DNA of 64,000 nucleotides from an uncultured Calditrichaceae bacterium (GTDB taxonomy: Bacteria; Calditrichota; Calditrichia; RBG-13-44-9). The DNA lies in assembly GCA_964495805.1 (NCBI GenBank), contig CAZBWV010000035.1, positions 5,924-69,923 of the forward strand. Reading direction: 5' to 3'. How positions within the stretch are numbered: position 1 is the first letter of the stretch; the number at the start of each line of letters is the position of its first letter. Shown piece by piece: positions 43 to 24,156 of the stretch. Made by a program: the position numbers and the translations under genes. The notes under the pieces were generated by a model that saw only the letters and a program-made list of their open reading frames with translations, was not told the DNA's origin and made no database searches.

Positions 43-1530
43 GTGTATTCTCTGCTGTCTCCGGACTTCCGGGAAAGTAAGAGCGAACCGGAGCGAGCAA
101 CGGTTCTGGATCAGCTTTATGAGCGGGCGAAAGAATTGGTTTTGCGAGAGAACCTGACACCGGAGACCCTGTCTGCCGCCTATGCTCGCATCAGCCGAAG
201 TCCCAAACCGGTGAATGAATTGCGAGAAATTGCACGCAAGGAAGTGGATCGGGCACGAAAGTCCAATCAGAATATTATTTTCGGTTTGGGGCACAGTTCG
301 GTTGCCGAACATGCCGTATTTAATTTTGACGTGATTGATGTTTCGCGATTGGCGGTAGAATTCATTGAACACTTCCGGCTGGCATCTTTTACGGAAAAAT
401 CCCAGCGCTACGTACTTTTTCGGGATGAATTTGTGACTCCTGCGGAGCTGGAGTCAACGGATCTCCGGCAAGAATATCAGAGCGTGGTTAAGTCTCTTTT
501 CTCTGCGTACCACCAGCTGTACAAAAAACTTCGGCCGTATGTGTTCGAAAAATATGCTCACCTTGCCAGCGAGCGAAAGAATCACTCCATGCTGGAAGGA
601 TTGGCTAAAGAGGATGCCCGCTACATCACTCCCCTGGCTACCAGCACGCAGTTAGGCATAACTCTGAACGCCCGCTCCCTGGAACGAATGATTTCGAAGG
701 GAGCAGCCCATCCGCTTCAGGAGGTTCGACAATTCGCCCGAGCACTTTATCAGGCTTCGGCGCATTACGCTCCATCCCTTATCAAATACACCGAACCCAC
801 AAAATATTTGCTCAACAAAGAGGAGAAACTTCACCGGTTGTTAAATGTTTTTACAGCACCAGAAATATCGGAAGAACCAGCAGAAGAAGTTCGCCTGCTT
901 CAGGTAACACCGGACGCCGATCAGCATCTACTTACCACCTTATTTTTTCGCTACGCCTCTCTTTCCTTTCATCGTGCTCAACAGATGGCCAAACGTTTAA
1001 CCCCGGAAGATAAAAAGCGGATTTTTCGTGAAGTATTTCGTCACATCAATCCCTGGGATGCCGTACTCCGGGAATTTGAAACCGTTCAGATGACCTTTGA
1101 ATTGGTAGTCAGCGCTTCCAGTTATGCCCAGTTCAAACGGCACCGCATGGCCACCATCATTCCCCAGAATTACAATTTATCTCTGGGAACAACCATCCCA
1201 CCTGCCATTCGCGAGGTCGGCATGGAAGCATTTTTCCTGGAACACATTGAGCAGGCAGAAAAGTTGTACCGTAAACTCCAGCAATTCAATCCGGTAATTG
1301 CCCCTTATATTCTGACCAACGCCCACCGACGGCGCATTCTCTTTCAGCTCAATTTAAGGGAATTTTACCACTTCCTGCGCCTAAGGGAAGACGAACACGC
1401 CCAATGGGACATTCGTCAAACTGCGGAGCAGATGCACCGGACTGTATCCCGGCATCTTCCCCTGACCGGGGCTCTTCTGGCCGGGAAACACCGTTTTGTG
1501 GAAAGCTACCGGAAATTTTTCCAATCTTGA
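43..1530 (+). CDS. thyX: FAD-dependent thymidylate synthase ThyX, fused tandem-domain form of at least 495 aa. The reading frame is open back to window position 1, so the 5' end may lie upstream.
   Basis: The N-terminal half has the ThyX core (GHSSVAEHAVFNF...EKSQRY, EDARYITPLATST). The C-terminal half has a second ThyX core with the canonical RHR motif (QFKRHRMATIIPQNYNLS) and NAHRRRILFQLNLREFYHFLRLR. GTG start at 43. Confidence 0.8.
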   Translation: MYSLLSPDFRESKSEPERATVLDQLYERAKELVLRENLTPETLSAAYARISRSPKPVNELREIARKEVDRARKSNQNIIFGLGHSSVAEHAVFNFDVIDVSRLAVEFIEHFRLASFTEKSQRYVLFRDEFVTPAELESTDLRQEYQSVVKSLFSAYHQLYKKLRPYVFEKYAHLASERKNHSMLEGLAKEDARYITPLATSTQLGITLNARSLERMISKGAAHPLQEVRQFARALYQASAHYAPSLIKYTEPTKYLLNKEEKLHRLLNVFTAPEISEEPAEEVRLLQVTPDADQHLLTTLFFRYASLSFHRAQQMAKRLTPEDKKRIFREVFRHINPWDAVLREFETVQMTFELVVSASSYAQFKRHRMATIIPQNYNLSLGTTIPPAIREVGMEAFFLEHIEQAEKLYRKLQQFNPVIAPYILTNAHRRRILFQLNLREFYHFLRLREDEHAQWDIRQTAEQMHRTVSRHLPLTGALLAGKHRFVESYRKFFQS

Positions 1531-2983: not shown

Positions 2984-3229
2984 TTATTGCTGTTTGCCTC
3001 GGTAGAAGAGTCCGATGGGAATAATGATCAGGTAGCCAATAACCAGAATGATGGGAGAAAGTGTACGGGTTAAAAAAGCGTCCGGATCGTCGGGAATAAG
3101 CATAAAAATGTAACCAACCGCCAGCACCACAATTCCTAATAACAGGATGTAAAGATTGGTGCGATTCAGCGGAAAATGAAATCGGGGTTTAAAACTTTCT
3201 TTTTTTACTTTTTCTTTTGCTTTTGCCAT
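2984..3229 (-). CDS. small membrane protein (DUF3098-like, 2 TM)
   Basis: An 81-aa product MAKAKEKVKK... with two hydrophobic helices. The longer ORF back to 3319 lacks a plausible start, and no SD was seen. Confidence 0.45.
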   Translation of the reverse strand: MAKAKEKVKKESFKPRFHFPLNRTNLYILLLGIVVLAVGYIFMLIPDDPDAFLTRTLSPIILVIGYLIIIPIGLFYRGKQQ

Positions 3230-3344
3230 TGTTTTCAGTAGTTTTCGTTCAAAGCAGGCAAAATTTACTGGAAACAAAAGCTTAAAGCAAGAAGTTTTAA
3301 GAAAAAGAAAATCATTCAAGAATAACTATTGAGGAGGACACTGC

Positions 3345-4328
3345 ATGATTCGCGAAATTGTGCACAACGGAATTACCGTGGATGAGCATGCCCGGAAAGC
3401 GATTGATCGGAAAATTCAGAAACTGGAAGCCATGCTGGAAAAATTTCAGCCGGATATGGTGAAACTGCGCATGAAGTTAAACAAATTGAACAAGCGGGAA
3501 GAGTACACAGTGGATTTAATCCTGGAACTGCCCAACAAAACACTGCGTGCAAGTAAAAGCGGTGACAAACTTTCTAAGGCGCTGAATGAATCGTTTAACA
3601 GTCTGATTCGAGAGGTAAAAAAGTTTAAAGCCTTCCTGCGACGGGAACCGGATTACAAACGTAAAATCCGTCCCACTTACAAGGAGATGTTATTAAAAAC
3701 AACCACTCCGGAAGAAACCCAGGAACTGTACCTGGACTTCATTGAAAAGAATTTCCAGCGTTTTTACAATTTTGCCTACCGGGAGATTCGGAATCGAATC
3801 TATCAGGGATTACTCAAGCCCGGTGAGCTGATGGTGCAGGATGTGCTGGACGAGGCGATCCTGAAAATTTCCGAAGAAGTCGAGCCCAATTTCGATGAGA
3901 AACAGGTGCGGAAACGGGTGTATCAAGCCATAGAGACAATTATCAAACGGAAGGTCAAGGAAGTTCGTTTCCGTCGGGTACCTTTGGAGAAAACGGTGGA
4001 AATTCACGATCTGGATACCGAATTGTACGAATACTATCAACCGGATGATGTGGTAAAGGTGGAGGATGTCATTCCCGATCCGACTTCTCCTGAGCCGGAA
4101 GACTGGTACGAAGAAGAAGAAATTGAAGAAACAGTGGACCGGGTGATCTCCCTGTTGCCGAACCGCTGGCGGCAGGCACTTCAACTGGTGGAAATGGAAG
4201 GTTTTTCGCCAGAGGAGGTGGCTATGATTCAGGGAGTACCTGCGGAAAAGGTGAAACAGGAAGTGGAAAATGCCAAACAGTTTATACGCGAAAAACTCCA
4301 GGACTACGGATTGAAATGGAATCGGTAG
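3345..4328 (+). CDS. fusion protein of an N-terminal ribosome hibernation promoting factor (HPF/RaiA) domain and a C-terminal ECF-like sigma-70 domain (regions 2 and 4)
   Basis: The first 110 aa or so align to short HPF (GITVDEHARKAIDRKIQKLE...YTVDL...ASKSGDKLSKALNESFNSLIREVKKFK). The C-terminus carries sigma-70 region 2 (LMVQDVLDEAILKI) and region 4 (LPNRWRQALQLVEMEGFSPEEVAMIQGVPAEKVKQEV). A GAGGAGGA SD lies upstream, and it is one continuous frame. Confidence 0.7.
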   Translation: MIREIVHNGITVDEHARKAIDRKIQKLEAMLEKFQPDMVKLRMKLNKLNKREEYTVDLILELPNKTLRASKSGDKLSKALNESFNSLIREVKKFKAFLRREPDYKRKIRPTYKEMLLKTTTPEETQELYLDFIEKNFQRFYNFAYREIRNRIYQGLLKPGELMVQDVLDEAILKISEEVEPNFDEKQVRKRVYQAIETIIKRKVKEVRFRRVPLEKTVEIHDLDTELYEYYQPDDVVKVEDVIPDPTSPEPEDWYEEEEIEETVDRVISLLPNRWRQALQLVEMEGFSPEEVAMIQGVPAEKVKQEVENAKQFIREKLQDYGLKWNR

Positions 4329-4362
4329 CCTGGTTGCCCATTCCGATTGTGAATAAATTACA

Positions 4363-4397
4363 GGCCGTCTGTTCGCAGGCGGCCTTTTAATTTTTAT
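4363..4397 (+). terminator. rho-independent terminator
   Basis: GGCCGTCTG-TTCG-CAGGCGGCC hairpin followed by TTTTAATTTTTAT. Confidence 0.5.
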
Positions 4398-6589: not shown

Positions 6590-7567
6590 TTACTTGGTGC
6601 GGTTAACAACAAATTCCGCCAGGTCTTTTAACACAATGCGTGCTTTGCTGTCCGGTAGCTTTTCCAGCTCTGCCAGCGCACGGTCCTTGTACTCCCGCGC
6701 TTTGGCTTCCGCCCGCTTGATGCCCTGATATTTGAAGATGAAATCCACGATATAATTGATTTCTTTCTTCTCTACACCGTTTTTGAGCATACGGGTAATC
6801 TTTTTCCGCTCGCTGCTGTCCACCGACTCCAGCGCATAAATCAACGGGAGAGTGATTTTTTTCTCCTTCAAATCGTGACCCACCGGTTTGCCTAAAATAC
6901 TGGAACGGCTCTGGTAGTCCAGCAGGTCGTCTTTGATCTGGAAAGCGATTCCCAGATACTCGCCAAAGGAACGCAGCGTTTCTCGCTCCCGGTCGGTGGC
7001 GTTAACCGTAATGGCACCGATTTCGCAACAGGCGGAGATGAGCGAAGCGGTCTTGTCCGAAATCATCTGGAAATATTCGGATTCGTTGATGTTCAGTTTG
7101 CGGGATTTCTGGATTTGGAGCAGTTCCCCTTTGCTGAGCCGCTTGGCTACGTTGGCAATAATGTTCATCAGCTCCAGGTGACCAATCTCTGTGGCAATAA
7201 TCAGGGATTTGGAGAGCAGGTAATCTCCCATCAATACGGCAATTTTATTTTTCCACACTGCATTGATGGTGGGGAATCCCCGCCGGATTTCCGCCTCGTC
7301 CACCACATCGTCATGCACCAGGGTAGCGGTGTGAAGCAGTTCCACCACCACTGCCGCTTTGTAGGTTTTTTCCCCGGGATCGGCCAGCGTACGTGCCGAA
7401 GTAATTACCAGCATAGGGCGAAACTGTTTGCCTTTGTGCCGAACCAGGTATTTGGCCACCTCGTCCACAATCCGGACGTTGGAAGCCATGCTTTTTTTAA
7501 AGTAATCCTGAAAAACCCGAAGGTCGTGGGAAAACGGCTTAAAAATTTTTTTAGCGGAAAGAGCCAT
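6590..7567 (-). CDS. ispB: polyprenyl (octaprenyl/all-trans) diphosphate synthase
   Basis: First DDxxD motif LVHDDVVDEAEIRRG and second motif FQIKDDLLDY. Confidence 0.85.
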   Translation of the reverse strand: MALSAKKIFKPFSHDLRVFQDYFKKSMASNVRIVDEVAKYLVRHKGKQFRPMLVITSARTLADPGEKTYKAAVVVELLHTATLVHDDVVDEAEIRRGFPTINAVWKNKIAVLMGDYLLSKSLIIATEIGHLELMNIIANVAKRLSKGELLQIQKSRKLNINESEYFQMISDKTASLISACCEIGAITVNATDRERETLRSFGEYLGIAFQIKDDLLDYQSRSSILGKPVGHDLKEKKITLPLIYALESVDSSERKKITRMLKNGVEKKEINYIVDFIFKYQGIKRAEAKAREYKDRALAELEKLPDSKARIVLKDLAEFVVNRTK

Positions 7568-7675
7568 AATTATAAAAAGTTAACAGATTCCGTTTTGAGC
7601 GAACCTTTCCTCCCTTCAGGAGGTAAATTTACGAAAATATCACGAAAAATGGATGTGCTAAAATAAATTCGACTT

Positions 7676-8512
7676 TTATTCGGAGCCAGTGGTCTCTTCT
7701 CCGGTCTGAGCAGATTTCTTCTCTGCCTGTTCTCGCTCGTATTCCTCCTGCCTTTCCTGCTTAGATTTGTAAACCAGTTTTGAGACAAAGATGGAGAATT
7801 CGTACAGAACAATCAAAGGAATGGCCAGCATGACCTGCGTGAAGGGATCGGGTGGGGTGAGTATGGCTGCCAGAACAAAAATCAGCACGATTGCGTGACG
7901 TCGGTATTTTCGCATAAGATCCGGAGAGATGAGCCCGATTTTACTGAGGAAGAAGCTGAGCACCGGCAATTCGAAAATGATCCCAAAAATCACCAGCAAA
8001 CGGATGGTAAACCCGATGTAAAAATCGATGGCGATGTTGGTTTTCACGCTGGGTGGTGCCAGATTCAGGAAAAAATTCAGGGCAAACGGAAGAATTACAA
8101 AATAGGCAAACGCCACCCCGGCCAGGAATAGAAAAGTTGCCGAACTAATCAATCGGGGAAAATATCGCCGTTCTTTCGGGTACAACCCCGGGGCAATAAA
8201 AGCCCAAATCTGGTACAGAATGTAAGGAAGGCTCAAAATCAGGCCGCCGAAGAAGGCAATTTCTAACGTGACCAGAAACATGCCCTGAACTTTCAGCACC
8301 TGAATTTCCAGAGGCAGATTCACCCGTGTAGTGGGCCACAGCAACGCATTTAGCAACTGCTTGGAGAAAATCAGGCACAGCCCCGCTGCAATAATGACTG
8401 CCAGCAGCGACTTGATGATGCGATTCCGCAATTCCTCCAGATGTTCCAGAAAGGGCATTTCTTTGTCTTCGTACTTCACGGCCGTCCGTTGGTTTTCTTG
8501 TTCAATTCCCAA
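7676..8512 (-). CDS. tatC: twin-arginine translocase subunit TatC
   Basis: MPFLEHLEELRNRIIKSLL... with 6 TM. An alternative start at 8458 (MPFLEH) is possible. No tatA lies adjacent. Confidence 0.85.
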   Translation of the reverse strand: MGIEQENQRTAVKYEDKEMPFLEHLEELRNRIIKSLLAVIIAAGLCLIFSKQLLNALLWPTTRVNLPLEIQVLKVQGMFLVTLEIAFFGGLILSLPYILYQIWAFIAPGLYPKERRYFPRLISSATFLFLAGVAFAYFVILPFALNFFLNLAPPSVKTNIAIDFYIGFTIRLLVIFGIIFELPVLSFFLSKIGLISPDLMRKYRRHAIVLIFVLAAILTPPDPFTQVMLAIPLIVLYEFSIFVSKLVYKSKQERQEEYEREQAEKKSAQTGEETTGSE

Positions 8513-8825: not shown

Positions 8826-9485
8826 TTATTCCACGTTCATTCCTGCGAAACCCAGGAAGGCGATGGACATGAGTCCCGCTACGATGAAGGCAATGGGGAG
8901 TCCGCGAAACGGTTTGGGGACATTGGCCAGTTCTAACTTTTCCCGGATGCCTGCCATCAGGATAAGCACCAGGGTAAACCCAACTCCGGAAGCAAAAGCC
9001 TGCACCAGGGTGTGAATAAAGCTGTTGTGCAACGGCAACCCGTCCTTAAAGAACATATCGATGTTCAGAACCGCCACACCCAGGATGGCACAGTTGGTGG
9101 TGATCAGAGGCAGGTAAATGCCCAGCGCTTTGTACAGGGTGGGACTCACCTTCTGGATGTACATTTCAATAAATTGCACCAGGGCAGCAATTACCAGGAT
9201 AAACACAATGGTTCGCAGGAAGGTCAGATCGGGTACCTTGTCGATGGGAGTGTGGAATACCACATAAAAGATACTCTGGTAAGTGGGCGCCAGGAAGAAA
9301 TTGTACAGCAGCCAGGTCACCAGCGATGCCAGGGTCATCACAAAGGTGACGGCCAGACCCATTCCCACAGCAGAATCCAGTTGTTTGCTAACCCCCATGT
9401 AGGGGCATAGCCCCAGAAATCGTGCCAGCACAAAGTTGTTGATGAAAATCGAAAGGATGATGAGTTGAAAAATGCCGTATTCCAT
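8826..9485 (-). CDS. rnfA: Rnf electron transport complex subunit A
   Basis: [39 protein letters not shown], the RnfA/NqrE family signature. Confidence 0.85.
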
Positions 9486-9501
9486 TTTATTCCCTCAACG
9501 G

Positions 9502-10128
9502 TTATTTTTTACGAGATTCCAGCCAGTTCAAACCACCCAGATAAAGTCCGATGACCAGAAACGCTCCCGGGGGCAGGATCATAAGCAGCACCGGCTGGTA
9601 GCCGGAGCCAAGAATGTTCACTCCAAGCAAATGTCCGCTCCCCAGCAGTTCCCGGGCAAAGGCAATTGCCGTCAGAGCAATGGTGAAACCCAACCCCATC
9701 CCCAGACCGTCCAGAATGGAGGCAAACACCGGGTTTTTGCTGGCAAAACCTTCTGCCCGCCCCAGGATGATACAGTTTACCACAATGAGGGGAATGAAAA
9801 TCCCCAGAGATTCGGACAGGGCGGGGAAGTAGGCGGACATCACCATCTCCACAATGGTCACAAAGGAGGCGATGACCACGATGAAGATGGGAATGCGGAT
9901 TTTGTTGATGCTTTTTAATCCCTCTTCGGACAGTGTTTTCTGGAACAGCTTCATGAGCAGGGAGACGATGGTATTGGAACTGACCAGCACGAAAATCACC
10001 GCCACTCCCATTCCGATGGCGTTATTAATGGAGGTGCTGACTGCCAGCGTGGGGCACAACCCCAGCGCCAGCCGGAACACCGGATTTTCTTTAAGAATGC
10101 CTTTGGTCAAATCGTTTAACGAGGCCAT
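9502..10128 (-). CDS. rnfE: Rnf electron transport complex subunit E
   Basis: ENPVFRLALGLCPTLAVSTSINNAIGMGVAVIFVL and GIFIPLIVVNCIILGRAEGFA, the RnfE/NqrD family signature. Confidence 0.85.
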   Translation of the reverse strand: MASLNDLTKGILKENPVFRLALGLCPTLAVSTSINNAIGMGVAVIFVLVSSNTIVSLLMKLFQKTLSEEGLKSINKIRIPIFIVVIASFVTIVEMVMSAYFPALSESLGIFIPLIVVNCIILGRAEGFASKNPVFASILDGLGMGLGFTIALTAIAFARELLGSGHLLGVNILGSGYQPVLLMILPPGAFLVIGLYLGGLNWLESRKK

Positions 10129-10136
10129 GCGAATTC

Positions 10137-10772
10137 TTACCCTCCGATTTTATGGGAAGCATCTGCGGTAATGCCCAGTTCGGGCAACAGAGTCTGCAAT
10201 TTGTTTTTAATGGCGTTGGTAATGGCGCGCGAGGTGATGGTCGCGCCGGTGATGCTGATGATTTTTCCGCCGTCTTTATCCACCTTCAGATCGTCCACCG
10301 TTTTCCCGACAAACTGTTCGGTGCTCCAGTGTTTGCCGTCGAACGGTGGGTCTTCCACGCAGCGGGCACCCAGGCCGGGTGTCTCTTTTTGCGAGATGAT
10401 TTTAATCTTTTTGATTTTCCCGGTAGGATCAATGCCCACCATGATTTCGATGATGCTGCTGTAACCGGAACCGTAAGCCATGAATGCATAGCCGGAGATT
10501 TGCGTGCTGTCCGCATCTGCATAGCCGATGTAGTAAACCACTTCCGAACGCTCATACAAAGTGTTGCCTTTGCTGTCCTTGACGGGCACCTTGCGCACGA
10601 TGGGCTTTACAACCTTCGCTTCCGGAAGCACAATCTGCAGAGCTTTACGCGTTTTCGCCTGTTTTTGCAGTTCAATTTGGGGCCGGGTGATGTTGTAAAT
10701 TTCGGCCAGGACCCAGGCCGCAATCAGTGTCACGATGGCCAGAATGAAACTTAACCGAAAAATATTACCCAT
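10137..10772 (-). CDS. rnfG: Rnf complex subunit G (FMN-binding)
   Basis: An N-terminal TM helix and the FMN_bind motifs GYSSIIEIMVGID, ETPGLG and ITGATITSRAI. It overlaps rnfD by 8 nt. Confidence 0.85.
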   Translation of the reverse strand: MGNIFRLSFILAIVTLIAAWVLAEIYNITRPQIELQKQAKTRKALQIVLPEAKVVKPIVRKVPVKDSKGNTLYERSEVVYYIGYADADSTQISGYAFMAYGSGYSSIIEIMVGIDPTGKIKKIKIISQKETPGLGARCVEDPPFDGKHWSTEQFVGKTVDDLKVDKDGGKIISITGATITSRAITNAIKNKLQTLLPELGITADASHKIGG

Positions 10773-11820
10773 TTTTCTTTACCTCTCCAAATACTCTGGG
10801 AACCGTGTAACGGTCAATTAAAGGAACAGCCAGGTTCATTAACAGAATGGCGTAGCTCACCCCTTCGGGGTATCCGCCCCAGATTCGAATGGCCACGGTT
10901 AAAATACCCACCCCCACGGCAAATATATATTGCCCTTTTGCGGTAATGGGGGAGGTCACCATGTCTGTCGCCATGTAAAAAGCGCCCAGCATCAATCCGC
11001 CGGACAGAATGTGGAAAATCCAGTTACCGGTAAACAGCCCCTCCGTCCCGCCAAAAATCCAGGCCAGCACAGCTACCGTACCGATGTAGGTAAATGGAAT
11101 CCGCCAGTCGATCACATGGCGGTAAAACATGATCAGTGCTCCAATGAGCAGGGCAATGACTGAGGTTTCTCCCAGACATCCGCCCACATTACCCACCAAC
11201 AAATTGGTGTAGCTGCTGGAAAGCTTTGCAATGGCATCCTGTGCCTGCTGGAGCTGAGTCGGATCGTACATCTCCGGATGAGCAATTATTTTGGCCGACT
11301 GTTTGAGCAAATTTAGCGGTGTTGCACTGGTAATAGCGGCAATGCCGGAGACGGTTCCTGTTTTTGGTGGCAGGAAGCTGGCATTTGCTGTCATCTGCAC
11401 CGGCCAGGAGGCCAGCAAAAATGCTCGTGCAGCCAGTGCGGGATTCAGAATGTTGTAACCCAGTCCGCCGAACAATTCCTTTACAATGGCAATGGCAAAC
11501 ACCGAACCCACTACCGGCATCCACCAGGGAACCGAAGGAGGCAGGTTGTACGCCAGCAGAATGCCGGTTACCACCGCTGCGCCATCGTGTACCCGGATCG
11601 GTTTATGGGCGAACTTCTGAATGAGCGCCTCGGTAGCAACGGCAGCCAGCACCGAAAGCAGGGTAATCCACAACGCCTTGAATCCAAAAAAATAGACGGC
11701 CATAATCAGCGCCGGGAGCAGAGCGATGTTTACCGTCCACATGATTTTGGCCACGGAGTCCTTATCGCGCACATGGGGCGAAGATGTTACCACAAAGAGC
11801 TTTTCGTTTACCTCAGTCAT
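10765..11820 (-). CDS. rnfD: Rnf complex subunit D
   Basis: SSPHVRDKDSVAKIMWTVNIALLPAL and polytopic RnfD/NqrB family features. Confidence 0.85.
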   Translation of the reverse strand: MTEVNEKLFVVTSSPHVRDKDSVAKIMWTVNIALLPALIMAVYFFGFKALWITLLSVLAAVATEALIQKFAHKPIRVHDGAAVVTGILLAYNLPPSVPWWMPVVGSVFAIAIVKELFGGLGYNILNPALAARAFLLASWPVQMTANASFLPPKTGTVSGIAAITSATPLNLLKQSAKIIAHPEMYDPTQLQQAQDAIAKLSSSYTNLLVGNVGGCLGETSVIALLIGALIMFYRHVIDWRIPFTYIGTVAVLAWIFGGTEGLFTGNWIFHILSGGLMLGAFYMATDMVTSPITAKGQYIFAVGVGILTVAIRIWGGYPEGVSYAILLMNLAVPLIDRYTVPRVFGEVKKNG

Positions 11821-11886
11821 TTTCTATTGCGCCTTTTTAAATTGTCCTGTTTGTTTACTTCTACGGAAAATGGCGCGCCAGCCCAA

Positions 11887-13221
11887 TTATGCGCTGGCTT
11901 TACGCCGCATTTCCAGAACTTTCCGTTTTCCCAGACGAATGGCGTGTACCAGCCTGCGATTCGCCGGGCAAATGTATGAGCAGGAACCACACTCGATGCA
12001 GTCCATCACATGGTACTTTTCAGCATCTTCGAACCGTTTGTTTTCCACCAGCATCTGCAAGGTGGTGGGCAACAGATGCATGGGACATACTTCCACGCAG
12101 CGCCCGCATCCAATGCACGGGTCTTCCGGGGGAAGCTTCGCTTCCGCTTCTTCAAATACCAGGATGCCAGAAGTCCCTTTTACCACCGGTACGTCCAGGT
12201 TCGGCTGTGCCAATCCCATCATGGGTCCGCCCATGATGATTTTCCGGGCATTTTCACTGAGCCCCCCGCAAAACGAGACCACATCTTTAAAGGGAGTTCC
12301 GATGGGCACCAGCACGTTTTTCGGTTCTTTGATGCCCGGGCCGGTTACGGTTACCACCCGATGGGTGAGTGGTCGTTTGTACGCCACGGCATCGTAGATG
12401 GCTCTGGCTGTGCCTACGTTTTGCACCACCACTCCCACATCCATGGGGAGGCCGCCGGTGGGTACTTCGCGATTCAGAATGGCTTTGATGAGCTGTTTTT
12501 CGGCACCCTGTGGGTATTTCACCGGTAGCACGGCAATCTGGATGTTCCGGTGGTTCGCCGCCGCCTGGCGCATTTTTTCCACCGCATCCATTTTGTTGTT
12601 CTCAATTCCAACAATCCCCCGCTCCACTCCCAGAATCTTCATGATGATTTCCAGCCCTTTGATGATTTCCTCCGCCTGTTCCAGCATCAGTCGATGGTCG
12701 GCAGTCAGGTAGGGCTCACACTCAGCACCGTTTAGAATGGCCACGTCAATTTTTTTGTCCGGGGGAGGGGATAGCTTGACGTGTGTAGGGAATGTCGCAC
12801 CACCCAGACCAGCCAGACCGGCCTCTTTAATCCGATCGCGCATCTCCTGAGCGGACAACTTCAGATATCCAGAGTCAAATTCCAGTCCTTCTACCCAATC
12901 CTCTCCACTGCCCTCCCCTCGCTCAATCACAATGGCTTTGCCCCGTCCGGAAACCGGATGCAGCACATCCAGGATGCCCTTTACCTTACCGGAAATGGAA
13001 GCGTGAATGGGCACGGAGACAAAACCGGTTGCATCAGCAATTTTCTGCCCCGCCAGCACCGAATCGCCTTTCGCCACCAGAGGTTTGGTCGGTGCGCCAA
13101 TGTGTTGCTGCAGGGGGATGTAAACGGTTGCAGGGGTGGGAAGCGTTTCGATGGGTTTCTTGTCGGTGAATTCTTTTCCTTCAAACGGATGAACACCACC
13201 TTCGAACGTTTGTTTGCTCAC
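11887..13221 (-). CDS. rnfC: Rnf complex subunit C (NADH-binding, 2x[4Fe-4S])
   Basis: GGVHPFEGKE, HIGAP, and two ferredoxin motifs CIGCGRCVEVCP and CIECGSCSYICP. Confidence 0.85.
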   Translation of the reverse strand: MSKQTFEGGVHPFEGKEFTDKKPIETLPTPATVYIPLQQHIGAPTKPLVAKGDSVLAGQKIADATGFVSVPIHASISGKVKGILDVLHPVSGRGKAIVIERGEGSGEDWVEGLEFDSGYLKLSAQEMRDRIKEAGLAGLGGATFPTHVKLSPPPDKKIDVAILNGAECEPYLTADHRLMLEQAEEIIKGLEIIMKILGVERGIVGIENNKMDAVEKMRQAAANHRNIQIAVLPVKYPQGAEKQLIKAILNREVPTGGLPMDVGVVVQNVGTARAIYDAVAYKRPLTHRVVTVTGPGIKEPKNVLVPIGTPFKDVVSFCGGLSENARKIIMGGPMMGLAQPNLDVPVVKGTSGILVFEEAEAKLPPEDPCIGCGRCVEVCPMHLLPTTLQMLVENKRFEDAEKYHVMDCIECGSCSYICPANRRLVHAIRLGKRKVLEMRRKASA

Positions 13222-14354: not shown

Positions 14355-14501
14355 ATGAAGCGTACATATCAGCCCCATAACCGAAAGCGGAAAAATAAAC
14401 ACGGTTTTCGTGCCCGCATGAAAACAAAGAACGGGCGAAAAGTACTGGCGCGCCGTCGGGCGAAAGGACGTCGTCGTTTAACTGTTAGCGATGAATTCTA
14501 A
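14355..14501 (+). CDS. rpmH: 50S ribosomal protein L34
   Basis: [42 protein letters not shown], with a GGAGGA SD 5 nt upstream. Confidence 0.9.
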
Positions 14502-14814
14502 AAAACGGTTCTCCCTGCCCCGCCGGATTATCCTGAAGCGACGAAAAGAAATTGGTCGGGTGTTAAGCGAAGGCCGGAAAATAACCGGTGAGATTTTTAA
14601 CACCTTTATCCTGTCCGATGGAGAAACCGGGGTGGCTTTTCTGGTCAGTCGGCGAATCGGCAATGCGGTTCGCCGAAACCGCATGAAACGACTGCTGCGC
14701 GAAGCGTATCGGTTAAACCGGGAGAAGTTCTCTGGCAAAAAGGTGGTCTTTTACATCAAAAAATTTCATGATGATTTTCACCGGATTGTCAACATCATCC
14801 AAAACGTTGAATAA
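14491..14814 (+). CDS. rnpA: RNase P protein component
   Basis: [13 protein letters not shown]...[21 protein letters not shown]. It overlaps the rpmH stop. Confidence 0.85.
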
Positions 14815-14817
14815 ACC

Positions 14818-15054
14818 ATGAAGCACATCCTGGCATTTATCATTAAGTTGTACCGAAAGCTCATCTCGCCTCTGTTCCCACCATCCTGTCGTTTTTACCC
14901 CACCTGTTCGGAATACTCCGAAGAAGCCATTCTTCGGTTTGGCGTAATTCGGGGAGGGTGGTTGGCTGTCAAGCGAGTGAGCAAGTGTCACCCCTTTCAT
15001 CCGGGAGGGTACGATCCCGTTCCAACATCATTGAAGAGGAAAGAGAATGGATAA
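14818..15054 (+). CDS. yidD: membrane protein insertion efficiency factor YidD
   Basis: [31 protein letters not shown]... Confidence 0.85.
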
Positions 15055-16855
15055 ACGCACATTCATTGGAATTGTTCTAATTATCATCATCACCCTGATG
15101 ATGCCCTTTTACCAGCGCTGGATTATGGGTGACCGGCCCCCACAACAACCGGTACAACAGGCTGTGGCACCGGATAGCCTTGCCGAAACAGAAACTCCGA
15201 TCGATACGGCAATGAACCACCGGATGACGGCTGCTGCGGATACGGCGTTAAGTCAGCCGGTTGAAGAAATGGCAGACACCACCCGGATTGCGCTTCGGGG
15301 GGCGGAACAGGTGAAACGGCTGGTGGTGGAAAACAAATACATCCGGGCGGAGTGGAGCACCGAAGACGGCGGGAATCCGGTTCGGTGGGAACTGAAAAAT
15401 TATGGTTATTATAAAGGTGGGAATGTTAATCTTATCGACCGGAACAGCCTGGATGTCGTGTTCATGAATAAGGATGGCAAGGAAATCCACTTAAACCGGT
15501 TCAATATGTATGCAGATTTTCCGGACCATCAGTCGGTGAATCTGACCGAATCCGGAGATTCGGCGTTTGTGTTTCAGTTTTATTTGCCCGTACGAAACGG
15601 AAAAATTGTGAAGACCATTCGCTTTTATCCCGATAAATACTCCGTGGATGTGGAGGTCCGTTTCGAAAATCTGCGCGATTACGTCATTAATCGGAAATAC
15701 GGATTGGCCTGGAAGAACGGGCTGCCTCCCACCGAAGAAAACATTCGGGACGACCTGAATTACAGTCGGGCGTTTGTTTACATGGCCGAAGAGCTGGAAG
15801 GGTTCGATGCCAATGATAAATACAAAGAGGAAAGTTTTAAGGGTCGAGTGGATTGGGTGGCAGTACGAACCAAGTATTTTCTCAGTGCCATCATTCCACA
15901 GCAACCGGAGCGAACCATTGGCGCCACGCTGGGCGGAGTAAAAACTAAAGAGGACGGGATTGAACACAAACGGTTTACCGCTGCTCTGGAAACCGAATAT
16001 CAACCGGTCGATCAATATTCCGACAATTTTACCGTTTATCTGGGACCGCTGGATTATTACATCCTGAAAAAGTATGGTGTGAACCTTCAGGTGCTGGTGA
16101 TGAACAAAGACTGGTACGAACGGTTATTCCGTCCCATCAGCCTGATTATCATCCCGGCGTTTCAGTTCCTGTACCGATTCATCCCCAATTACGGCTTTGT
16201 GATTATTGTTTTCTCCATTCTGATTAAGCTGATTCTGTATCCGCTCACCAAGAAGAGCTACCAATCCATGAGCGAGATGCAGTACCTGCAGCCCAAGATG
16301 ACCGAATTGCGGGAGAAGTACAAAAATGATCCCCAGCGCCTGAATCGCGAAATGATGAGACTGTACAAAGAGCACGGGGTGAATCCGTTAGGAGGGTGCT
16401 TGCCCACGCTGCTACAGATGCCTTTGCTCTTTGCTTTGTTTATTGTGTTCCGTTCCACTATTCAATTGCGCGGACAGCCTTTTATTGGGTGGATCACCGA
16501 CCTTTCCCGGCCGGACAAATTGCCGCTGGGTGTGCATCTTCCGTTGATCGGGGACAATATTCATGTGCTGCCAATCCTGATGGGATTAACCATGATCTGG
16601 CAGTCCAAAATATCCATGACCGATCCCAAGCAGAAGATGATGGTCTATTTCATGCCCATTTTTATGATATTCATTTTTTATTCGCTACCTTCCGGGTTAA
16701 ACCTGTATTATGCGGTATTCAACCTGTTAAGCATGATTCAGACCCATTACATCAAAAAGAAAATGCATCCTAACGGGGTACCGCCGGTTGCGGAAAAAGC
16801 GCCGGTTCGTTCGAAAAAGGTGGAGCGCGGAGGCACCACCAAAAAGAAGTCGTAA
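15047..16855 (+). CDS. yidC: membrane protein insertase YidC
   Basis: An N-terminal TM helix, a large periplasmic domain, and a C-terminal 5-TM core ([29 protein letters not shown]), in conserved rpmH-rnpA-yidD-yidC synteny. Confidence 0.85.
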
Positions 16856-16864
16856 CCTCAGATC

Positions 16865-18253
16865 ATGAACATTTTCCCGACGGAAGACACCATTGTCGCC
16901 CTTTCCACTCCGGCCGGAAAGGGCGCTCTTGCTATTGTTCGAATGAGCGGGGAGAAAAGTCTGGAGATTGTGAATCAGATGTTCTCCCGGCCGATATCGC
17001 CGAAGGCGCATCGGAAAGCGCATTTTGGTAAAATTGTTCATCCGGAGAGCGGGGAGGTGGTGGATGAGGTGGTGGTCACCTTTTTTCGGGCACCTCACTC
17101 CTATACGGGCGAACACGTGGTGGAGATTTCCTGCCACAACAATTTTTTAATTGTAGATCAAATCATTCGGCTGGCTATTGCCCGGGGAGCCAGACCGGCG
17201 CGGCCCGGAGAGTTTACCGAACGGGCATTTTTAAACCACAAGCTGGACCTGGCTCAGGCCGAAGCTGTAGCCAGTTTAATCGATTCCAGAACCCGATTGG
17301 GTGTGCGCACTTCCCTGCGCCAGTTGGAAGGAGGACTCTCCCGAAAAATCCACCGGCTCAAAGAGCAACTGATGAACATATTGGCCCTGGTGGAAGTTAG
17401 CCTGGATTTTAACGAAGAAGAGATGGAGGTCTATCGTCCGGATGAGCTGGAGCAAGCGGCACAAAAAGTGGTGAAAGAGCTGGAGCGGTTGTTAAGTAGC
17501 TATTCCCTGGGACGATTGTTAAACGAAGGATTGCGGCTGGTATTACTGGGTAAGCCCAATGTGGGAAAGTCCAGTTTACTCAACCATCTGTTGCAGCACG
17601 AACGGGCCATTGTGAGCGAAATCCCTGGCACCACCCGGGATTACATTGAGGAGACGGTGGAGATTGAGGGAATCCCGGTTCAGGTGGTGGACACGGCCGG
17701 GGTGCGGGAAACACGCGATCCCGTGGAAGAGGCGGGAGTAAAACGAGCGCTGGAACATGCCCGCACCGCGGATATCGTGCTGGCCATGTTCGATGCCCAC
17801 AGCGAATTGGATAAGGACGATCGGCGGTTACTGGAATTGTTGCAGGAGTTGAGAAATTCGGGTACCATAATTCTGGTGTGCAACAAAATAGATCTGGGTT
17901 GTCATCCGGGCACCCTGGAACAGTTGTCCCGGCTGAAACGTTTGATGGTGAGAATATCTGCTTTAACGGGCGAAGGAGTGGCGGAATTGCGTCAACGGAT
18001 TAAGCAGGCGGTAGTAGCGGGTGAGGTGGGGGAGGATGAACTGCTTTTAACCAGCGCACGGCATCGGGTAGCGGTGGAAAAAGCCCGGGAAGCACTGCTT
18101 TCCTTCATCCGGGGGCTTCGGCTGAAAGCCGATGAGGTCATTCTGGCCACCGATTTACGCAGTGCACTGGATTATCTGGGGGAAGTGGTGGGCGAGACCA
18201 CCACGGAAGATATCTTAAATCACATATTCGGCCAATTTTGCATTGGCAAATAG
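16865..18253 (+). CDS. mnmE: tRNA modification GTPase MnmE
   Basis: TIVALSTPAGKGALAIVRMSG, the G domain GKPNVGKSSLLN, and a C-terminal CIGK. Confidence 0.9.
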   Translation: MNIFPTEDTIVALSTPAGKGALAIVRMSGEKSLEIVNQMFSRPISPKAHRKAHFGKIVHPESGEVVDEVVVTFFRAPHSYTGEHVVEISCHNNFLIVDQIIRLAIARGARPARPGEFTERAFLNHKLDLAQAEAVASLIDSRTRLGVRTSLRQLEGGLSRKIHRLKEQLMNILALVEVSLDFNEEEMEVYRPDELEQAAQKVVKELERLLSSYSLGRLLNEGLRLVLLGKPNVGKSSLLNHLLQHERAIVSEIPGTTRDYIEETVEIEGIPVQVVDTAGVRETRDPVEEAGVKRALEHARTADIVLAMFDAHSELDKDDRRLLELLQELRNSGTIILVCNKIDLGCHPGTLEQLSRLKRLMVRISALTGEGVAELRQRIKQAVVAGEVGEDELLLTSARHRVAVEKAREALLSFIRGLRLKADEVILATDLRSALDYLGEVVGETTTEDILNHIFGQFCIGK

Positions 18254-18265
18254 ATCGTTTGGCAG

Positions 18266-20206
18266 GTGGTAAGAACAACAGTCAGAAGGTTTCACGTGAA
18301 ACACAAGGGGAACATTCGGGAGTTTGATGTGGTGGTCGCCGGCGGGGGTCACGCCGGTATTGAGGCGGCACTGGCCGCAGCACGGCTGGGTATGCGCACC
18401 GCCCTGGTCTCCCTGCGCATCGACACCATCGGTAAAATGTCCTGTAATCCCGCCATTGGCGGATTGGCCAAGGGACATCTGGTGCGCGAAATCGATGCAC
18501 TGGGAGGCGAGATGGCCAAACTGATCGATCGCACCGGAATTCATTTTAAAATTCTCAATCGCTCCAAAGGTCCTGCGGTGTGGTCGCCACGCGCCCAGGC
18601 CGACCGACAGGCGTATGCCCGCGCCGCCCAGCAGGTGGTGCTGAACCAACCCGGTCTGAAAGTCATCCAGGCTGCGGTTACCGGACTGCAGGTGAAAAAC
18701 GGGAAAGTGACTGCAGCGGTGCTGGACGATGGCACCCGACTCCCCTGTCGGGCGCTCATCCTGACCTGTGGGACGTTTTTAAACGGCAAAATTTTTATCG
18801 GATTGAGTGAACTGGCCAGCGGTCGTGCGGGAGAACCACCGGTACGCGGATTAACCGAAGCGCTGGTGGATTTGGGGTTTGAAGCGGGACGGTTGAAAAC
18901 CGGTACCCCTCCCCGGGTACATCGGGATTCCATCGATTATTCGAAGGTCATTGAACAAAAACCGGATCGTCCACCCGAACCGTTTTCATTTCAAACAGAA
19001 TCCATTAACCGCCGCCAGCTTAGTTGCTATATCACCCACACCAATCCTCATACCCACGATTTTCTTCGGTTGGGACTGGATCGGTCACCGCTATACACGG
19101 GCATGATCAAAGGCGTCGGTCCCCGTTACTGTCCTTCTATCGAGGACAAAATTGTGAGATTTGCGGACAAAGAACGACATCAGCTGTTTCTGGAACCGGA
19201 AGGGTTCGACAACGAAGAAGTCTATGTTAATGGGTTTGCCACCAGTTTACCGGAGGATGTGCAGATACGCTCCCTGCATTCGGTTCCGGGGCTTGAAAAA
19301 GCCAAAATCATTCGTCTGGGATATGCCATTGAGTACGATTTTTTCCCCTCTTATCAGATTCGCCATACCATGGAGACCCGGCTGGTGGAGGGGCTTTATT
19401 TTGCCGGGCAAATAAATGGTACCTCCGGGTATGAGGAGGCGGCCGCCCAGGGATTGATGGCGGGAATCAACGCTGCGTTGAAAATCAAAGGCGAGCCCCC
19501 GTTGATTCTGGATCGTTCTCAGGCTTACATCGGGGTGTTAATTGACGATTTGATCAACAAAACCATCCTGGAGCCCTACCGCATGTTTACTTCCCGGGCG
19601 GAGTTTCGGCTATTGTTACGGCACGACAATGCGGATTTACGGCTGATGGAGATTGGCTACCATATTGGCCTGCTTCCTGAGCGCGCATACCAGAGGATGG
19701 TGGAAAAGCGGGAGCGGATTCACCGTTTATTCGAAGAAATCGATCGGCACAGCGTGTCTCCGGAGCAGTTTAATGCCTATGCGGAAGAAGTGGGGACTGC
19801 CCCCATTCATCAAACCCTTCCCTTGAAGCAGGTGTTGAAACGTCCGGAGGTGAAATTAAGCGAAATGTTAAAAATGTTGGGAATAACCGATGAATACGGG
19901 AAGGATGAATTGATCCATGTGGAATTTTTGACCAAGTATGAGGGGTACATTCGTCGGCAGGAGGAGCTGGTGGAGAAGTTTAAGAAGATGGAGCATCGGG
20001 AGATACCGGAGGATTTTGATTATCTGGCCATACCGTCTCTTTCGGCGGAGAGCCGGGAGAAGTTGATGCAGGTGCGTCCGCGTTCGTTGGGGCAGGCCAG
20101 CCGCATTTCCGGGGTGCGACACAGCGACATCACCATTCTGATGATTTATCTGGACAAATACGAGCGCACTCGCCGGGACGTTTCACGTGAAACAGTTGAC
20201 GGTTAA
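18266..20206 (+). CDS. mnmG: tRNA uridine 5-carboxymethylaminomethyl modification enzyme MnmG (GidA)
   Basis: FDVVVAGGGHAGIEAALAAARLGMRTAL is the FAD site, and the protein is full-length GidA-like. A GTG start at 18266 or 18296 is possible; the latter lies inside the palindrome. Confidence 0.9.
   Translation: MVRTTVRRFHVKHKGNIREFDVVVAGGGHAGIEAALAAARLGMRTALVSLRIDTIGKMSCNPAIGGLAKGHLVREIDALGGEMAKLIDRTGIHFKILNRSKGPAVWSPRAQADRQAYARAAQQVVLNQPGLKVIQAAVTGLQVKNGKVTAAVLDDGTRLPCRALILTCGTFLNGKIFIGLSELASGRAGEPPVRGLTEALVDLGFEAGRLKTGTPPRVHRDSIDYSKVIEQKPDRPPEPFSFQTESINRRQLSCYITHTNPHTHDFLRLGLDRSPLYTGMIKGVGPRYCPSIEDKIVRFADKERHQLFLEPEGFDNEEVYVNGFATSLPEDVQIRSLHSVPGLEKAKIIRLGYAIEYDFFPSYQIRHTMETRLVEGLYFAGQINGTSGYEEAAAQGLMAGINAALKIKGEPPLILDRSQAYIGVLIDDLINKTILEPYRMFTSRAEFRLLLRHDNADLRLMEIGYHIGLLPERAYQRMVEKRERIHRLFEEIDRHSVSPEQFNAYAEEVGTAPIHQTLPLKQVLKRPEVKLSEMLKMLGITDEYGKDELIHVEFLTKYEGYIRRQEELVEKFKKMEHREIPEDFDYLAIPSLSAESREKLMQVRPRSLGQASRISGVRHSDITILMIYLDKYERTRRDVSRETVDG
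18289..18302. repeat. perfect 14-bp palindrome GTTTCACGTGAAAC, copy 1 (at the mnmG 5' end)
   Basis: Read directly from the sequence. Identical copies occur at 20180 and 20220. Confidence 0.9.
20180..20193. repeat. perfect 14-bp palindrome GTTTCACGTGAAAC, copy 2 (11 nt before the mnmG stop)
   Basis: Read directly from the sequence. Confidence 0.9.
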
Positions 20207-20217
20207 ATAAAAGACGG

Positions 20218-20904
20218 GTGTTTCACGTGAAACATGGAAAATCCACATACGCGAACCAATGGATACGGCTGCAGGAGCTGTTTCCGGAATTTTCTTCCGA
20301 CCAGATGGAAAAACTCAATCGATATGCGGGTATGCTGGTGGAGTGGAATCGCCGGGTTCATCTGATTTCCCGCGCGGATGAACAGCGAGTGTGGACCCAT
20401 CACCTTCTGCCCAGTTTAATTGTCCTGAAGTTGACCGAACTCCCCGCAGGGGGCTCCCTGCTTGACCTGGGGAGCGGTGGAGGGCTGCCCGGTCTGCCCC
20501 TAAAAATGGCACGACCTGACCTGTCGGTGGTGCTGGTAGAATCGGTGCGCAAAAAGGCGTTGTTCTTAAAGCGGGTGGTGGAAGAACTGGGACTAACCGG
20601 GATCGCGGTTATCAACGAACGGCTGGAACCGGGTCGAGAGGCACGTTGGGGGCTGGGTGAGAAAATAGATGTGGTCACCGCACGCGCGGTGGCGGAAGTG
20701 AATGTGTTGTGGGAGCTAAGTGTGCGACTGCTACGACCGGGAGGGGCTTTAATAACCTGGAAGGGAGATCAGGAGGAAAATGAGTTTCGGCAATTTCAAA
20801 AGCAGTTGTCACTTTCCGGCGAAATCCTTGCCGTTCCTTCCAGATGGCACGATTTCTCCCCGCGCTTCCCGCATATGCGCATTTTTCGCCTGGAAAAATC
20901 ATAA
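20218..20904 (+). CDS. rsmG: 16S rRNA (guanine527-N7)-methyltransferase RsmG (GidB)
   Basis: LLDLGSGGGLPGLPLKMARPDLSVVLVESVRKKALFLK, with a GTG start. Confidence 0.85.
   Translation: MFHVKHGKSTYANQWIRLQELFPEFSSDQMEKLNRYAGMLVEWNRRVHLISRADEQRVWTHHLLPSLIVLKLTELPAGGSLLDLGSGGGLPGLPLKMARPDLSVVLVESVRKKALFLKRVVEELGLTGIAVINERLEPGREARWGLGEKIDVVTARAVAEVNVLWELSVRLLRPGGALITWKGDQEENEFRQFQKQLSLSGEILAVPSRWHDFSPRFPHMRIFRLEKS
20220..20233. repeat. perfect 14-bp palindrome GTTTCACGTGAAAC, copy 3 (at the rsmG start)
   Basis: Read directly from the sequence. Its centre is 40 bp from copy 2. Confidence 0.9.
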
Positions 20905-21070
20905 CCACTTCATTTCCTGGTGGCATCTCAAAATTCATTTTTTTATTTTTGACCGAACGCAAATGAAAAGCTGGAAACCTTGGGTAAATTTAAACCGAAT
21001 TTCTAAAAAAACCGGCAGATTTATCCGGAAAGAGCGTTAAATTATCTGGTCAGATGACAGGGATGGAACA

Positions 21071-24058: not shown

Positions 24059-24156
24059 ATACAGTTTCATTTCGGATAAGAAATTTTTGTATTTTTTACG
24101 TGAAGATGTTAAAATTGTATAACCACATCAATCACTAAAATTCAGGGGAGGATTGT

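Follow-up and report, generated by a model that had tools for sequence, protein, structure and literature searches.

We analyzed a 64,000-nucleotide stretch of DNA from an uncultured Calditrichaceae bacterium (GenBank assembly GCA_964495805.1, contig CAZBWV010000035.1, positions 5,924 to 69,923 of the forward strand; hereafter the window) and found that one of its genes encodes a ribosome hibernation factor (HPF/RaiA) domain joined in one frame to a sigma factor module. The protein consists of an HPF/RaiA fold of the type that forms the N-terminal domain of long HPFs, a basic tail and a sigma2-linker-sigma4 unit of the extracytoplasmic function (ECF) type. The fusion is real, vertically conserved, ancient and selected. 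As a tentative reading, held with less than even confidence, we propose that binding of vacant ribosomes by the HPF domain and of RNA polymerase (RNAP) core by the sigma module would, during proteotoxic stress, tie ribosome silencing to the availability of an alternative sigma factor.

The initial annotation of this DNA, made from its letters without database searches, had presented the architecture as one not known before. A preprint of November 2025 (bioRxiv 10.1101/2025.11.04.686544) already includes, in its accessible text, HPF fused to SigE among "chimeric HPF isoforms", and the family is large. According to the same text, some divergent 'long HPF' homologues have no dimerisation domain and are fused instead to Csp, SigE or CBS, and these chimeras are scattered, found on plasmids (pEc78 SigE-HPF) and at variable loci, and present beside a canonical HPF in the genome. 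The SigE chimera is a bioinformatic mention there, with no experiment or mechanism described in the accessible part. The window protein has the same architecture (an HPF N-domain without dimerisation domain followed by a SigE-like module) and its gene lies away from the hpf operon; the scattered distribution, plasmids included, and the variable location also match the relatives found here. As far as the accessible text goes, the preprint does not cover the Calditrichota clade, the conserved linker motif or the sigma-only members described below. Since the architecture is in the preprint and the family is common, the novelty is lower than first thought, and the new leads are the conserved linker, the link to orf11 of the tLST heat-resistance island and the link to chaperone clusters.

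The initial annotation had asked that a frameshift or assembly join near codon 110-120 be ruled out; neighbouring genes wrongly called as one read-through frame would be a further form of artefact. The sole hint of an artefact is that some database relatives are shorter, being fragments or sigma-only forms. Against it, an identical 327-amino-acid protein is encoded, between the same neighbours, on five independently assembled contigs from NCBI (GCA_054029175.1), ENA and JGI assemblies. All 29 clusters of homologues obtained at 90% clustering were full length, at identities from 87% down to 25%; the same architecture thus recurs in relatives, where the initial annotation had proposed to look for it. 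An exhaustive profile search covering 1.84 billion representatives returned about 190 clusters (50% identity) at E<=1e-30, with about 130 of the best 150 spanning both halves; hundreds of clusters have this architecture, and cultured Brucella, Caulobacter, Burkholderia and Methylorubrum carry full-length homologues on plasmids whose sequences are finished. Among 58 diverse family members, S30AE (E<=0.01) was detected in 53 and Sigma70_r4_2 likewise in 53. Between the window gene and its counterpart in an 87% identical relative (locus L004), nonsynonymous divergence (dN) was 0.15 in the HPF domain, 0.07 in sigma2, 0.029 in the linker and 0.05 in sigma4, with synonymous divergence (dS) saturated throughout. 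Every segment, junction included, is thus under purifying selection in this lineage. The five contigs, the full-length homologues and the purifying selection together exclude a join near codon 110-120, and we consider the probability of an artefact to be negligible.

The HPF nature of the N-terminal part was apparent from several searches. Pfam Ribosomal_S30AE (PF02482) matched residues 5-96 with 32.0 bits, above its gathering score of 23.7, and a profile of 16 homologues compared with the Protein Data Bank (PDB) matched whole HPF chains (4v8h_AX, 1.8e-8; E. coli HPF, 9.6e-8; and also S. aureus HPF). Pfam, the PDB profile and the predicted fold place the domain at residues 1-100, in agreement with the assignment of residues 1 to about 110 in the initial annotation. 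That annotation had also seen in it the short-HPF pattern of E. coli HPF; the nearest relatives are instead the N-terminal domains of long HPFs. As a single sequence the domain aligned end to end with the S. aureus long HPF 6qbz (E 1.7e-5, residues 2-101 against 2-99), whereas E. coli short HPF reached an E-value of 0.046 only. S. aureus HPF shares with it, at every aligned position, the motifs KLE, LRA and R(E/Q)V(K/R)K(F/Y)K; the KLE motif of alpha1 and the L.R(Q/E)..K.K..LR motif of alpha2 are both retained, and the alpha2 motif aligns with that of S. aureus HPF. The HPF domain carries a net charge of +8 and its tail one of +5. No Pfam hit to the long-HPF dimerisation domain Ribosom_S30AE_C was obtained in the protein even at E<=10. 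The window protein therefore shares with long HPFs (S. aureus, L. lactis, B. subtilis) and with short HPF/RaiA the N-domain fold, its motifs and a basic segment after alpha2, but it differs from them in lacking Ribosom_S30AE_C, in not being encoded in an operon of the rpoN-hpf type and in carrying a 200-amino-acid sigma module instead. An internal start at Met115, which would give a sigma-only product, was considered and is unlikely: the AAGGAG sequence directly abuts the ATG without a spacer.

The C-terminal part was recognized by the NCBIfam model TIGR02937 (sigma70-ECF) over residues 131-318, with 55.5 bits against a cut-off of 42.9, and marginally by Pfam Sigma70_r4_2 over residues 263-312 (26.7 against a gathering score of 25.7); Sigma70_r3 was hit weakly in only two of the 58 family members. 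The 16-homologue profile found the ECF sigma factors AlgU (7.6e-12) and sigmaE (8.6e-12) in the PDB. When the 58-member profile was aligned by hhalign with E. coli RpoE, the probability was 98.2% and the E-value 3e-14 over RpoE 46-186, a span that runs from region 2.2 through regions 2.3/2.4 and the linker to region 4.2. Both stretches that had been put forward as regions 2 and 4 aligned in this comparison, with ..VQDVLDEAILKI paired with sigmaE region 2.2 DVPDVVQEAFIKAY and the second with the sigma4 helix-turn-helix; the acidic linker proposed between them is borne out by its net charge (Table 1). In the family alignment region 2.2 has the form D..DEA (D166 in 93% and D169 in 88% of members, followed by E170), the WLYR(.A) motif of region 2.3 is present in most members, and in the sigma4 recognition helix V303, A310 and R311 are kept and positions 304/305 are partly basic. 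The layout is that of group 4 sigma factors such as RpoE, AlgU and SigW, namely sigma2 and sigma4 with an acidic linker and without sigma3 or sigma1.1. The window protein differs from these in its 120-amino-acid N-terminal HPF extension, in its long linker, which is its most conserved part, and in having no accompanying anti-sigma gene.

The best Pfam score on the sigma4 region belongs to PhyR_sigma-like (residues 274-314, 36.2 bits against a gathering score of 27), a match that covers the sigma4 helix-turn-helix only. PhyR likewise holds a sigma-derived module within a multi-domain regulator, and the module could accordingly be a PhyR-type decoy that titrates an anti-sigma factor instead of binding RNAP. 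Besides this top-scoring model, which is found in 44 of the 58 members, a weak PhyR_sigma2 hit in the Burkholderia homologue and partly degenerate DNA-recognition positions would fit such a decoy. On the other side, the window protein gave no Pfam hit to a receiver domain (Response_reg), and none of the loci examined has a neighbour resembling NepR or EcfG. Moreover the PhyR_sigma-like and Sigma70_r4_2 models describe one fold and each picks up matches of the other, and in the profile searches AlgU and sigmaE (E around 8e-12) ranked well above PhyR (7e-7). We regard a decoy function as very improbable.

The structure predicted by AlphaFold2 from 58 sequences (mean predicted local confidence, pLDDT, 87.6; pTM 0.59) contains an HPF fold and a sigma2/sigma4 module, as expected for two folded domains. 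Residues 1-98 form a beta-alpha-beta-beta-beta-alpha (E-H-E-E-E-H) domain with a pLDDT of about 95, residues 100-122 are basic and poorly ordered, long helices span residues 123-153, 164-178 and 185-208, the linker at 211-250 is of low confidence, and a four-helix sigma4 domain occupies residues 251-320. In Foldseek searches the N-domain was superimposed on ribosome-bound HPF/RaiA (8uu4_w, 8fmw_W, 4hei, 4y4o) with TM-scores of 0.78-0.89 and deviations of 1.6-3.3 A, and about 200 columns of the C-terminal part were aligned to the ECF sigma factors SigW, AlgU, sigmaE and EcfG. The predicted arrangement of sigma2 and sigma4 resembles the compact, anti-sigma-bound state (TM-score 0.67 to SigW/RsiW and EcfG/NepR) more than the open holoenzyme (0.32-0.40). 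AlphaFold2 often predicts free ECF sigma factors as compact, and this modelled arrangement may be taken as weak evidence only.

A feature that sets the family apart is its linker. Mean pairwise identity within the family was 39% in the linker core, 31% in sigma4, 26% in the HPF domain and 23% in sigma2, making the linker core (residues 224-251) the best-conserved segment. Ordinary ECF sigma factors show the opposite pattern: their sigma2-sigma4 linkers are described as highly variable, and N-terminal extensions among them as rare (PMC7826278); the main text of this 2021 ECF re-classification mentions no S30AE-type extension. The sigma module with its linker is the constant core of the family, to which the HPF domain is a frequent, not obligatory, addition. 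At least one close relative is sigma-only: P0129 (L023:1845-2480), whose upstream spacer measures just 183 nt and whose gene has two Hsp20 genes and one for DnaJ downstream of it. A candidate motif common to the upstream regions of the sigma and hsp20 genes of that locus (GATGTAAYAGGT) was discarded, since about 0.3-0.6 matches are expected by chance. We also noted a single database sequence, P0149, in which the sigma-like part is joined to a J-domain; it may be either a genuine Rosetta-stone fusion or a chimera produced in assembly.

To describe who carries the family we combined a scan of genome collections with plasmid searches. Close relatives (87-45% identity) are encoded in metagenome-assembled genomes (MAGs) of Calditrichia/Calditrichota, more distant copies in MAGs labelled Acidobacteriota, Caldisericaceae and Sedimenticola, and the source names of homologues also include candidate division KSB1, Calditrichaeota and Latescibacteria. 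By tblastn, full-length homologues were found on 32 plasmids (coverage 91-98%, identity 25-29%), whose hosts include cultured Brucella anthropi, Caulobacter, Burkholderia, Cupriavidus, Sphingomonas, Paracoccus and Methylorubrum extorquens AM1, and the Pfam hits of these plasmid proteins again combine S30AE with sigma region 4. Members of the family are annotated merely as 'sigma-70 family', 'FliA', 'sigma-28' or 'hypothetical'. This range, from MAGs of Calditrichota, Latescibacteria and Acidobacteriota to proteobacterial plasmids and orf11 of the tLST island, is newly reported here.

In the one locus inspected, L019:9001-10146 on the Enterobacter hormaechei plasmid NZ_CP056721.1, the gene orf11 of the tLST/LHR island has hdeD-GI on one side and trx-GI on the other. 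Aligned with the family by hhalign, its product matched over its full length (99.9%, E 2.8e-32, 336 columns) with about 21% identity to the family consensus, and it keeps the DVVDEAI and FYQ.DD motifs. In Pfam searches the same product gave a weak sigma4 signal only and its HPF part was undetectable. The profile alignment confirms orf11, at the level of sequence comparison, as a full-length divergent member of the HPF-sigma family; it differs from the window's relatives in its Pfam-invisible HPF part and in its location on a mobile island. A tblastn search started from the Brucella protein matched 288 plasmids, mostly from Klebsiella, Enterobacter, Acinetobacter and Escherichia, and in the full-length Enterobacter/Klebsiella plasmid matches the matched gene was the 'hypothetical' gene adjoining trx-GI. 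Reviews list orf11 as a gene of unknown function, and in a delta-orf11 strain lipid oxidation after chlorine was unchanged (PMC8407380).

Many relatives of the fusion gene lie within Hsp20/ClpB/DnaJ/GroEL clusters and the window's clade lies outside them, a distribution that is newly reported here. On plasmid pOANT01 of Brucella anthropi and on a Caulobacter plasmid the gene directly follows that of a 960-amino-acid ClpK/ClpG-like AAA ATPase and overlaps an hdeD gene; with three Hsp20 genes and those for MarR, FtsH, YfdX1/2, TrxC and PsiE in its surroundings, the pOANT01 locus is a tLST-like heat-resistance island. A Burkholderia plasmid has the gene flanked by three Hsp20 genes and groES-groEL-dnaK. 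Three loci of uncultivated lineages are organized similarly. The order in L026 is three Hsp20 genes, DegP, the fusion gene, ClpB, an open reading frame of 359 amino acids without Pfam hit, an HtpX-like M48 peptidase and DnaJ. In L027 three Hsp20 genes accompany the fusion gene, and some 1.7 kb away the opposite strand encodes a LonC-like protease. L028 has Hsp70, YfdX and three Hsp20 genes divergent from a GGDEF/PEP-utiliser gene, the fusion gene and a DnaJ gene, with phospholipase D and GroEL/ES farther away.

The hsp20 and hsp70 operons beside the family genes of these uncultivated lineages carry near-perfect sigma54 promoters of the form TGGCAC-N5-TTGC. One, TTGGCACAGAGCTTGCA, stands at the hsp20 operon of L027 (4128-4144, plus strand); two others, TTGGCACAGACTTTGCA and ATGGCACGGAGATTGCTG, were found in L028, at 3073-3057 on the minus strand and in the intergenic region 319-660 upstream of hsp70 (minus strand); and a near-match lies in the intergenic region 1806-2108 of L026, upstream of hsp20. 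These promoters imply sigma54-dependent expression of the heat-shock genes there, and no gene for an enhancer-binding protein was seen within the flanks. The hsp20 operons of the Brucella and Burkholderia plasmids have sigma32-like elements instead (CTTGAA/CTTGCA...CCTATCT; L016:2440-2641 and L018:6418-6667, 7525-7925), and a similar element, CTTGAT...TTTATAT, precedes the Burkholderia fusion gene, both read by eye and without statistics. The fusion gene thus appears to belong to the local heat-shock regulon and not to encode its master sigma factor. For the fusion genes themselves, we aligned 220 nt upstream of 12 orthologues and scanned them for bipartite ECF-like motifs. A GTAAC-N16-CATCGA(A) block recurs about 75-105 nt upstream of the start in one Calditrichota clade only (L001:5898-5924, L007:5891-5917, L008:2651-2677, L010:5895-5921) and has no counterpart ahead of the window gene; the block may represent either a promoter or a phylogenetic footprint. 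A sigma54 promoter at the window gene was considered and rejected, because its TGGAAAC-N4-GC has a GG-GC spacing of 8 nt against 10 and the sigma54 pattern scan gave no nearby site.

To our knowledge all characterised HPF/RaiA proteins dock in the decoding channel of the ribosome. In our proposal, the HPF module would dock there in vacant 30S/70S ribosomes and the sigma module would bind RNAP core. The conservation of the basic alpha1 and alpha2 motifs and of the basic tail is indirect evidence for such docking. The protein would then partition between ribosomes and RNAP, so that idle ribosomes would be silenced and the availability of an alternative sigma factor would be tied to the state of the ribosome pool. 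No anti-sigma family gene was present in any related locus examined, and the ribosome, or the HPF domain in cis, might replace the missing anti-sigma factor. Because the gene sits in heat-shock and proteostasis clusters in many relatives, the programme served would most likely be a proteotoxic or heat stress response. Sequence does not decide the direction of control, that is, whether ribosome binding would sequester the sigma module or activate it. The suggestion made in the initial annotation, that the protein could link hibernation to a stress programme or tether the sigma factor to ribosomes, remains plausible, and the heat-shock neighbourhood of many relatives lends it indirect support. 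A more specific version, which we consider rather doubtful, is that the part of the anti-sigma factor is played by the ribosome itself. Vacant ribosomes would hold the protein in their decoding channel through its HPF domain, and only when that site is occupied or released, or the reverse, would the acidic FYQPDE linker and sigma module reach RNAP, so that the cell would read its pool of idle ribosomes directly as a transcriptional signal during proteotoxic stress.

Several observations weigh against the proposed coupling of ribosome silencing to an alternative sigma factor. The HPF domain falls below the cut-off of the NCBIfam equivalog TIGR00741 (yfiA; 34.2 bits against 40.9), is absent from at least one close relative (P0129) and cannot be detected by Pfam in tLST orf11, so that ribosome binding may be dispensable. 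The sigma module is atypical. The initial annotation had called its region 4 a textbook helix-turn-helix and had expected the Pfam models for the HPF domain and for both sigma regions to match. Ribosomal_S30AE and sigma region 4 did match, and TIGR02937 and Sigma70_r4_2 support the sigma assignment; Sigma70_r2 gave no hit in the window protein and matched only two of the 58 members. The window's clade has lost the tryptophan of WLYR (at W191 the window protein has Arg, and aligned Calditrichota relatives are also without Trp), and the first Arg of the usual R-A-R in sigma4 is missing. In the recognition helix, position 308, which corresponds to Phe175 of sigmaE, is acidic in 59% of members (Asp or Glu, with Glu in 30 of the 58), and E308 of the window protein falls where sigmaE has DNA-contacting residues. 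As for the stress context, tblastn found no chaperone homologues in the window or in 14 other loci (11 of the Calditrichota clade plus L003, L014 and L015), so that the window's own clade cannot be credited with a heat-shock context. Upstream of the 12 orthologues no ECF-type promoter was convincingly shared: GGAAAC recurs, at 3270-3275 in the window and conserved in L004, without a common -10 element. Since the neighbouring hsp20 and hsp70 operons carry sigma54-type or sigma32-like promoters, the fusion protein is probably not the sigma factor that drives the adjacent chaperone genes; another regulon is possible for it. The promoter analyses do not discriminate between the proposed coupling and its rivals. 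Finally, the searched literature yielded no experiment on any family member.

Some of these observations would suit the reading taken in the preprint, a protein that is primarily a hibernation factor, in effect a truncated long HPF whose dimerisation domain has been swapped for a sigma-derived helical module that serves dimerisation, anchoring or partner binding and not transcription. Its N-domain is nearest to those of long HPFs, its sigma4 recognition helix is less basic than that of canonical ECF factors, the region 2 model is not matched, and the chaperone operons beside the genes of relatives use promoters that are not of the ECF type. In L026 the gene is apparently co-transcribed with heat-shock genes, as cargo would be, and the preprint (10.1101/2025.11.04.686544), in its accessible text, groups HPF-SigE with HPF-Csp and HPF-CBS as replacement isoforms beside canonical HPF. 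Nevertheless, both family identities and dN show the sigma part with its linker to be better conserved than the HPF domain, the core-binding region 2.2 and WLYR are kept in most members, a sigma-only member exists, and in tLST orf11 the HPF part has decayed past Pfam detection while the sigma motifs persist. We judge this explanation to be rather unlikely, though the likeliest of the rivals.

The converse explanation is that of an ordinary ECF-type sigma factor in which the HPF fold would act as an inhibitory or sensor extension in cis, as in ECF41/42 or BldN (ECF121), and would not bind ribosomes. N-terminal extensions are a known means of ECF regulation, and the absence of an anti-sigma partner, which holds in every context examined here, is typical of ECF sigma factors controlled by a fused extension (PMC7826278). 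The window protein may work like such factors without a separate anti-sigma (the SnoaL-like or TPR C-terminal domains of ECF41/42, the pro-sequence of BldN, SigC of ECF36); it differs from them in that its extension is a ribosome-binding fold and not a small-molecule-binding or pro-peptide segment. The score below the TIGR00741 cut-off, the fastest evolution of the HPF domain between the window and L004, and the resemblance of the model to anti-sigma-bound SigW and EcfG are also in line with a cis-acting role. That resemblance is weak, however, given the pTM of only 0.59 and the tendency of free ECF factors to be modelled compact, and the family as a whole conserves both the basic tail and the basic motif with which alpha2 faces the rRNA, which would be unexpected if the fold were merely reused. 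On balance a purely cis-acting extension appears unlikely.

What is known of how bacteria under stress coordinate the shutdown of translation with the reprogramming of transcription concerns mostly indirect routes, among them (p)ppGpp and Rsd with RMF. If the proposed coupling is true, one protein with a ribosome-silencing domain and a sigma module would provide a direct physical link between translation and transcription; if the ribosome indeed served as the anti-sigma factor, hibernation and sigma switching would be coupled directly at the protein level, and tLST orf11 would gain a function. The family is large and ancient, without experimental work, and it has members in tractable hosts, namely on Brucella anthropi pOANT01, the megaplasmid of Methylorubrum extorquens AM1 and the Burkholderia and Caulobacter plasmids. 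A further member is orf11 in the tLST island of Klebsiella, Enterobacter and E. coli, and the hypothesis is thereby relevant to how isolates from food and hospitals tolerate heat and chlorine. The conserved sigma2-sigma4 linker, previously undescribed, offers a concrete handle.

The features of the window gene are collected in Table 1. The single frame and the strong Shine-Dalgarno sequence reported in the initial annotation are both present, and GGAGG stands at the same spacing before the start in the orthologous loci. As the frame is closed just 4 codons upstream of the ATG, the start is unambiguous.

Table 1. Coordinates in the window of the HPF-sigma fusion gene, its signals and the segments of its product
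Feature	Position	Strand	Basis or remark
HPF-sigma fusion coding sequence	3345..4328	+	327 codons/327 amino acids, ATG start, single uninterrupted open reading frame
Shine-Dalgarno GAGGAGG	3331..3337	+	7 nt ahead of ATG, read from the sequence
Upstream intergenic region, 115 nt, presumed to bear the promoter	3230..3344	+	neighbour is the divergent 81-amino-acid membrane-protein gene
HPF/RaiA-type domain, residues 1-100, beta-alpha-beta-beta-beta-alpha	3345..3644	+	Pfam PF02482, PDB profile, AlphaFold2/Foldseek
Basic tail/interdomain segment, residues 99-122 (LRREPDYKRKIRPTYKE..), net charge +5	3639..3710	+	conserved; predicted largely disordered
Sigma2-like three-helix domain, residues 123-210, region 2.2 motif DVLDEA	3711..3974	+	TIGR02937, hhalign against RpoE, Foldseek
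Acidic sigma2-sigma4 linker, residues 211-262, net charge -17	3975..4130	+	low to moderate pLDDT
Linker signature D.E...(F/Y)YQPD(D/E)..(K/L).ED.IPD....PE, residues 224-251	4014-4097	+	family alignment
Sigma4 helix-turn-helix domain, residues 263-320	4131..4304	+	Pfam, PDB profile, alignment to sigmaE region 4
Intrinsic-terminator-like hairpin and T-run	4362..4395	+	10-bp stem with 7 GC pairs; between convergent genes

A consensus scan of the upstream intergenic region revealed no sigma-70-like promoter site. Downstream, the hairpin arms (4362-4385), followed by TTTAATTTTT, separate the fusion gene from a convergent glycosyltransferase gene. No anti-sigma gene lies beside the fusion gene, whose neighbours encode a HAD hydrolase, the 81-amino-acid membrane protein and a GT9 glycosyltransferase, and hmmsearch, run with the family HPF profile for the HPF part, detected no second HPF-like or sigma relative in the 64-kb window. 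The flanking genes, which encode a tandem ThyX, a zinc-ribbon protein, the HAD hydrolase, the small divergent membrane protein, GT9, ApbE, a polyprenyl synthase and TatC, are ordinary chromosomal genes. The divergent 81-amino-acid protein (2984-3229, minus strand) starts with MAKAKEK, shows two hydrophobic segments by eye and has no Pfam hit; its gene is also upstream of the fusion gene in L004 and not in more distant orthologous loci. The tandem ThyX, a 495-amino-acid protein encoded at 43-1530 (plus strand), has two Thy1 matches and is an internally duplicated flavin-dependent thymidylate synthase. Farther along the window (8826-13221 on the minus strand and 14491-24588 on the plus strand), an Rnf cluster encodes RnfD, RnfC with its Fe-S domains and two membrane subunits of the Rnf-Nqr type, and is followed by rnpA, yidC, mnmE and mnmG, then parA and ssb. 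This gene set is often found near the replication origin and indicates a chromosomal housekeeping neighbourhood.

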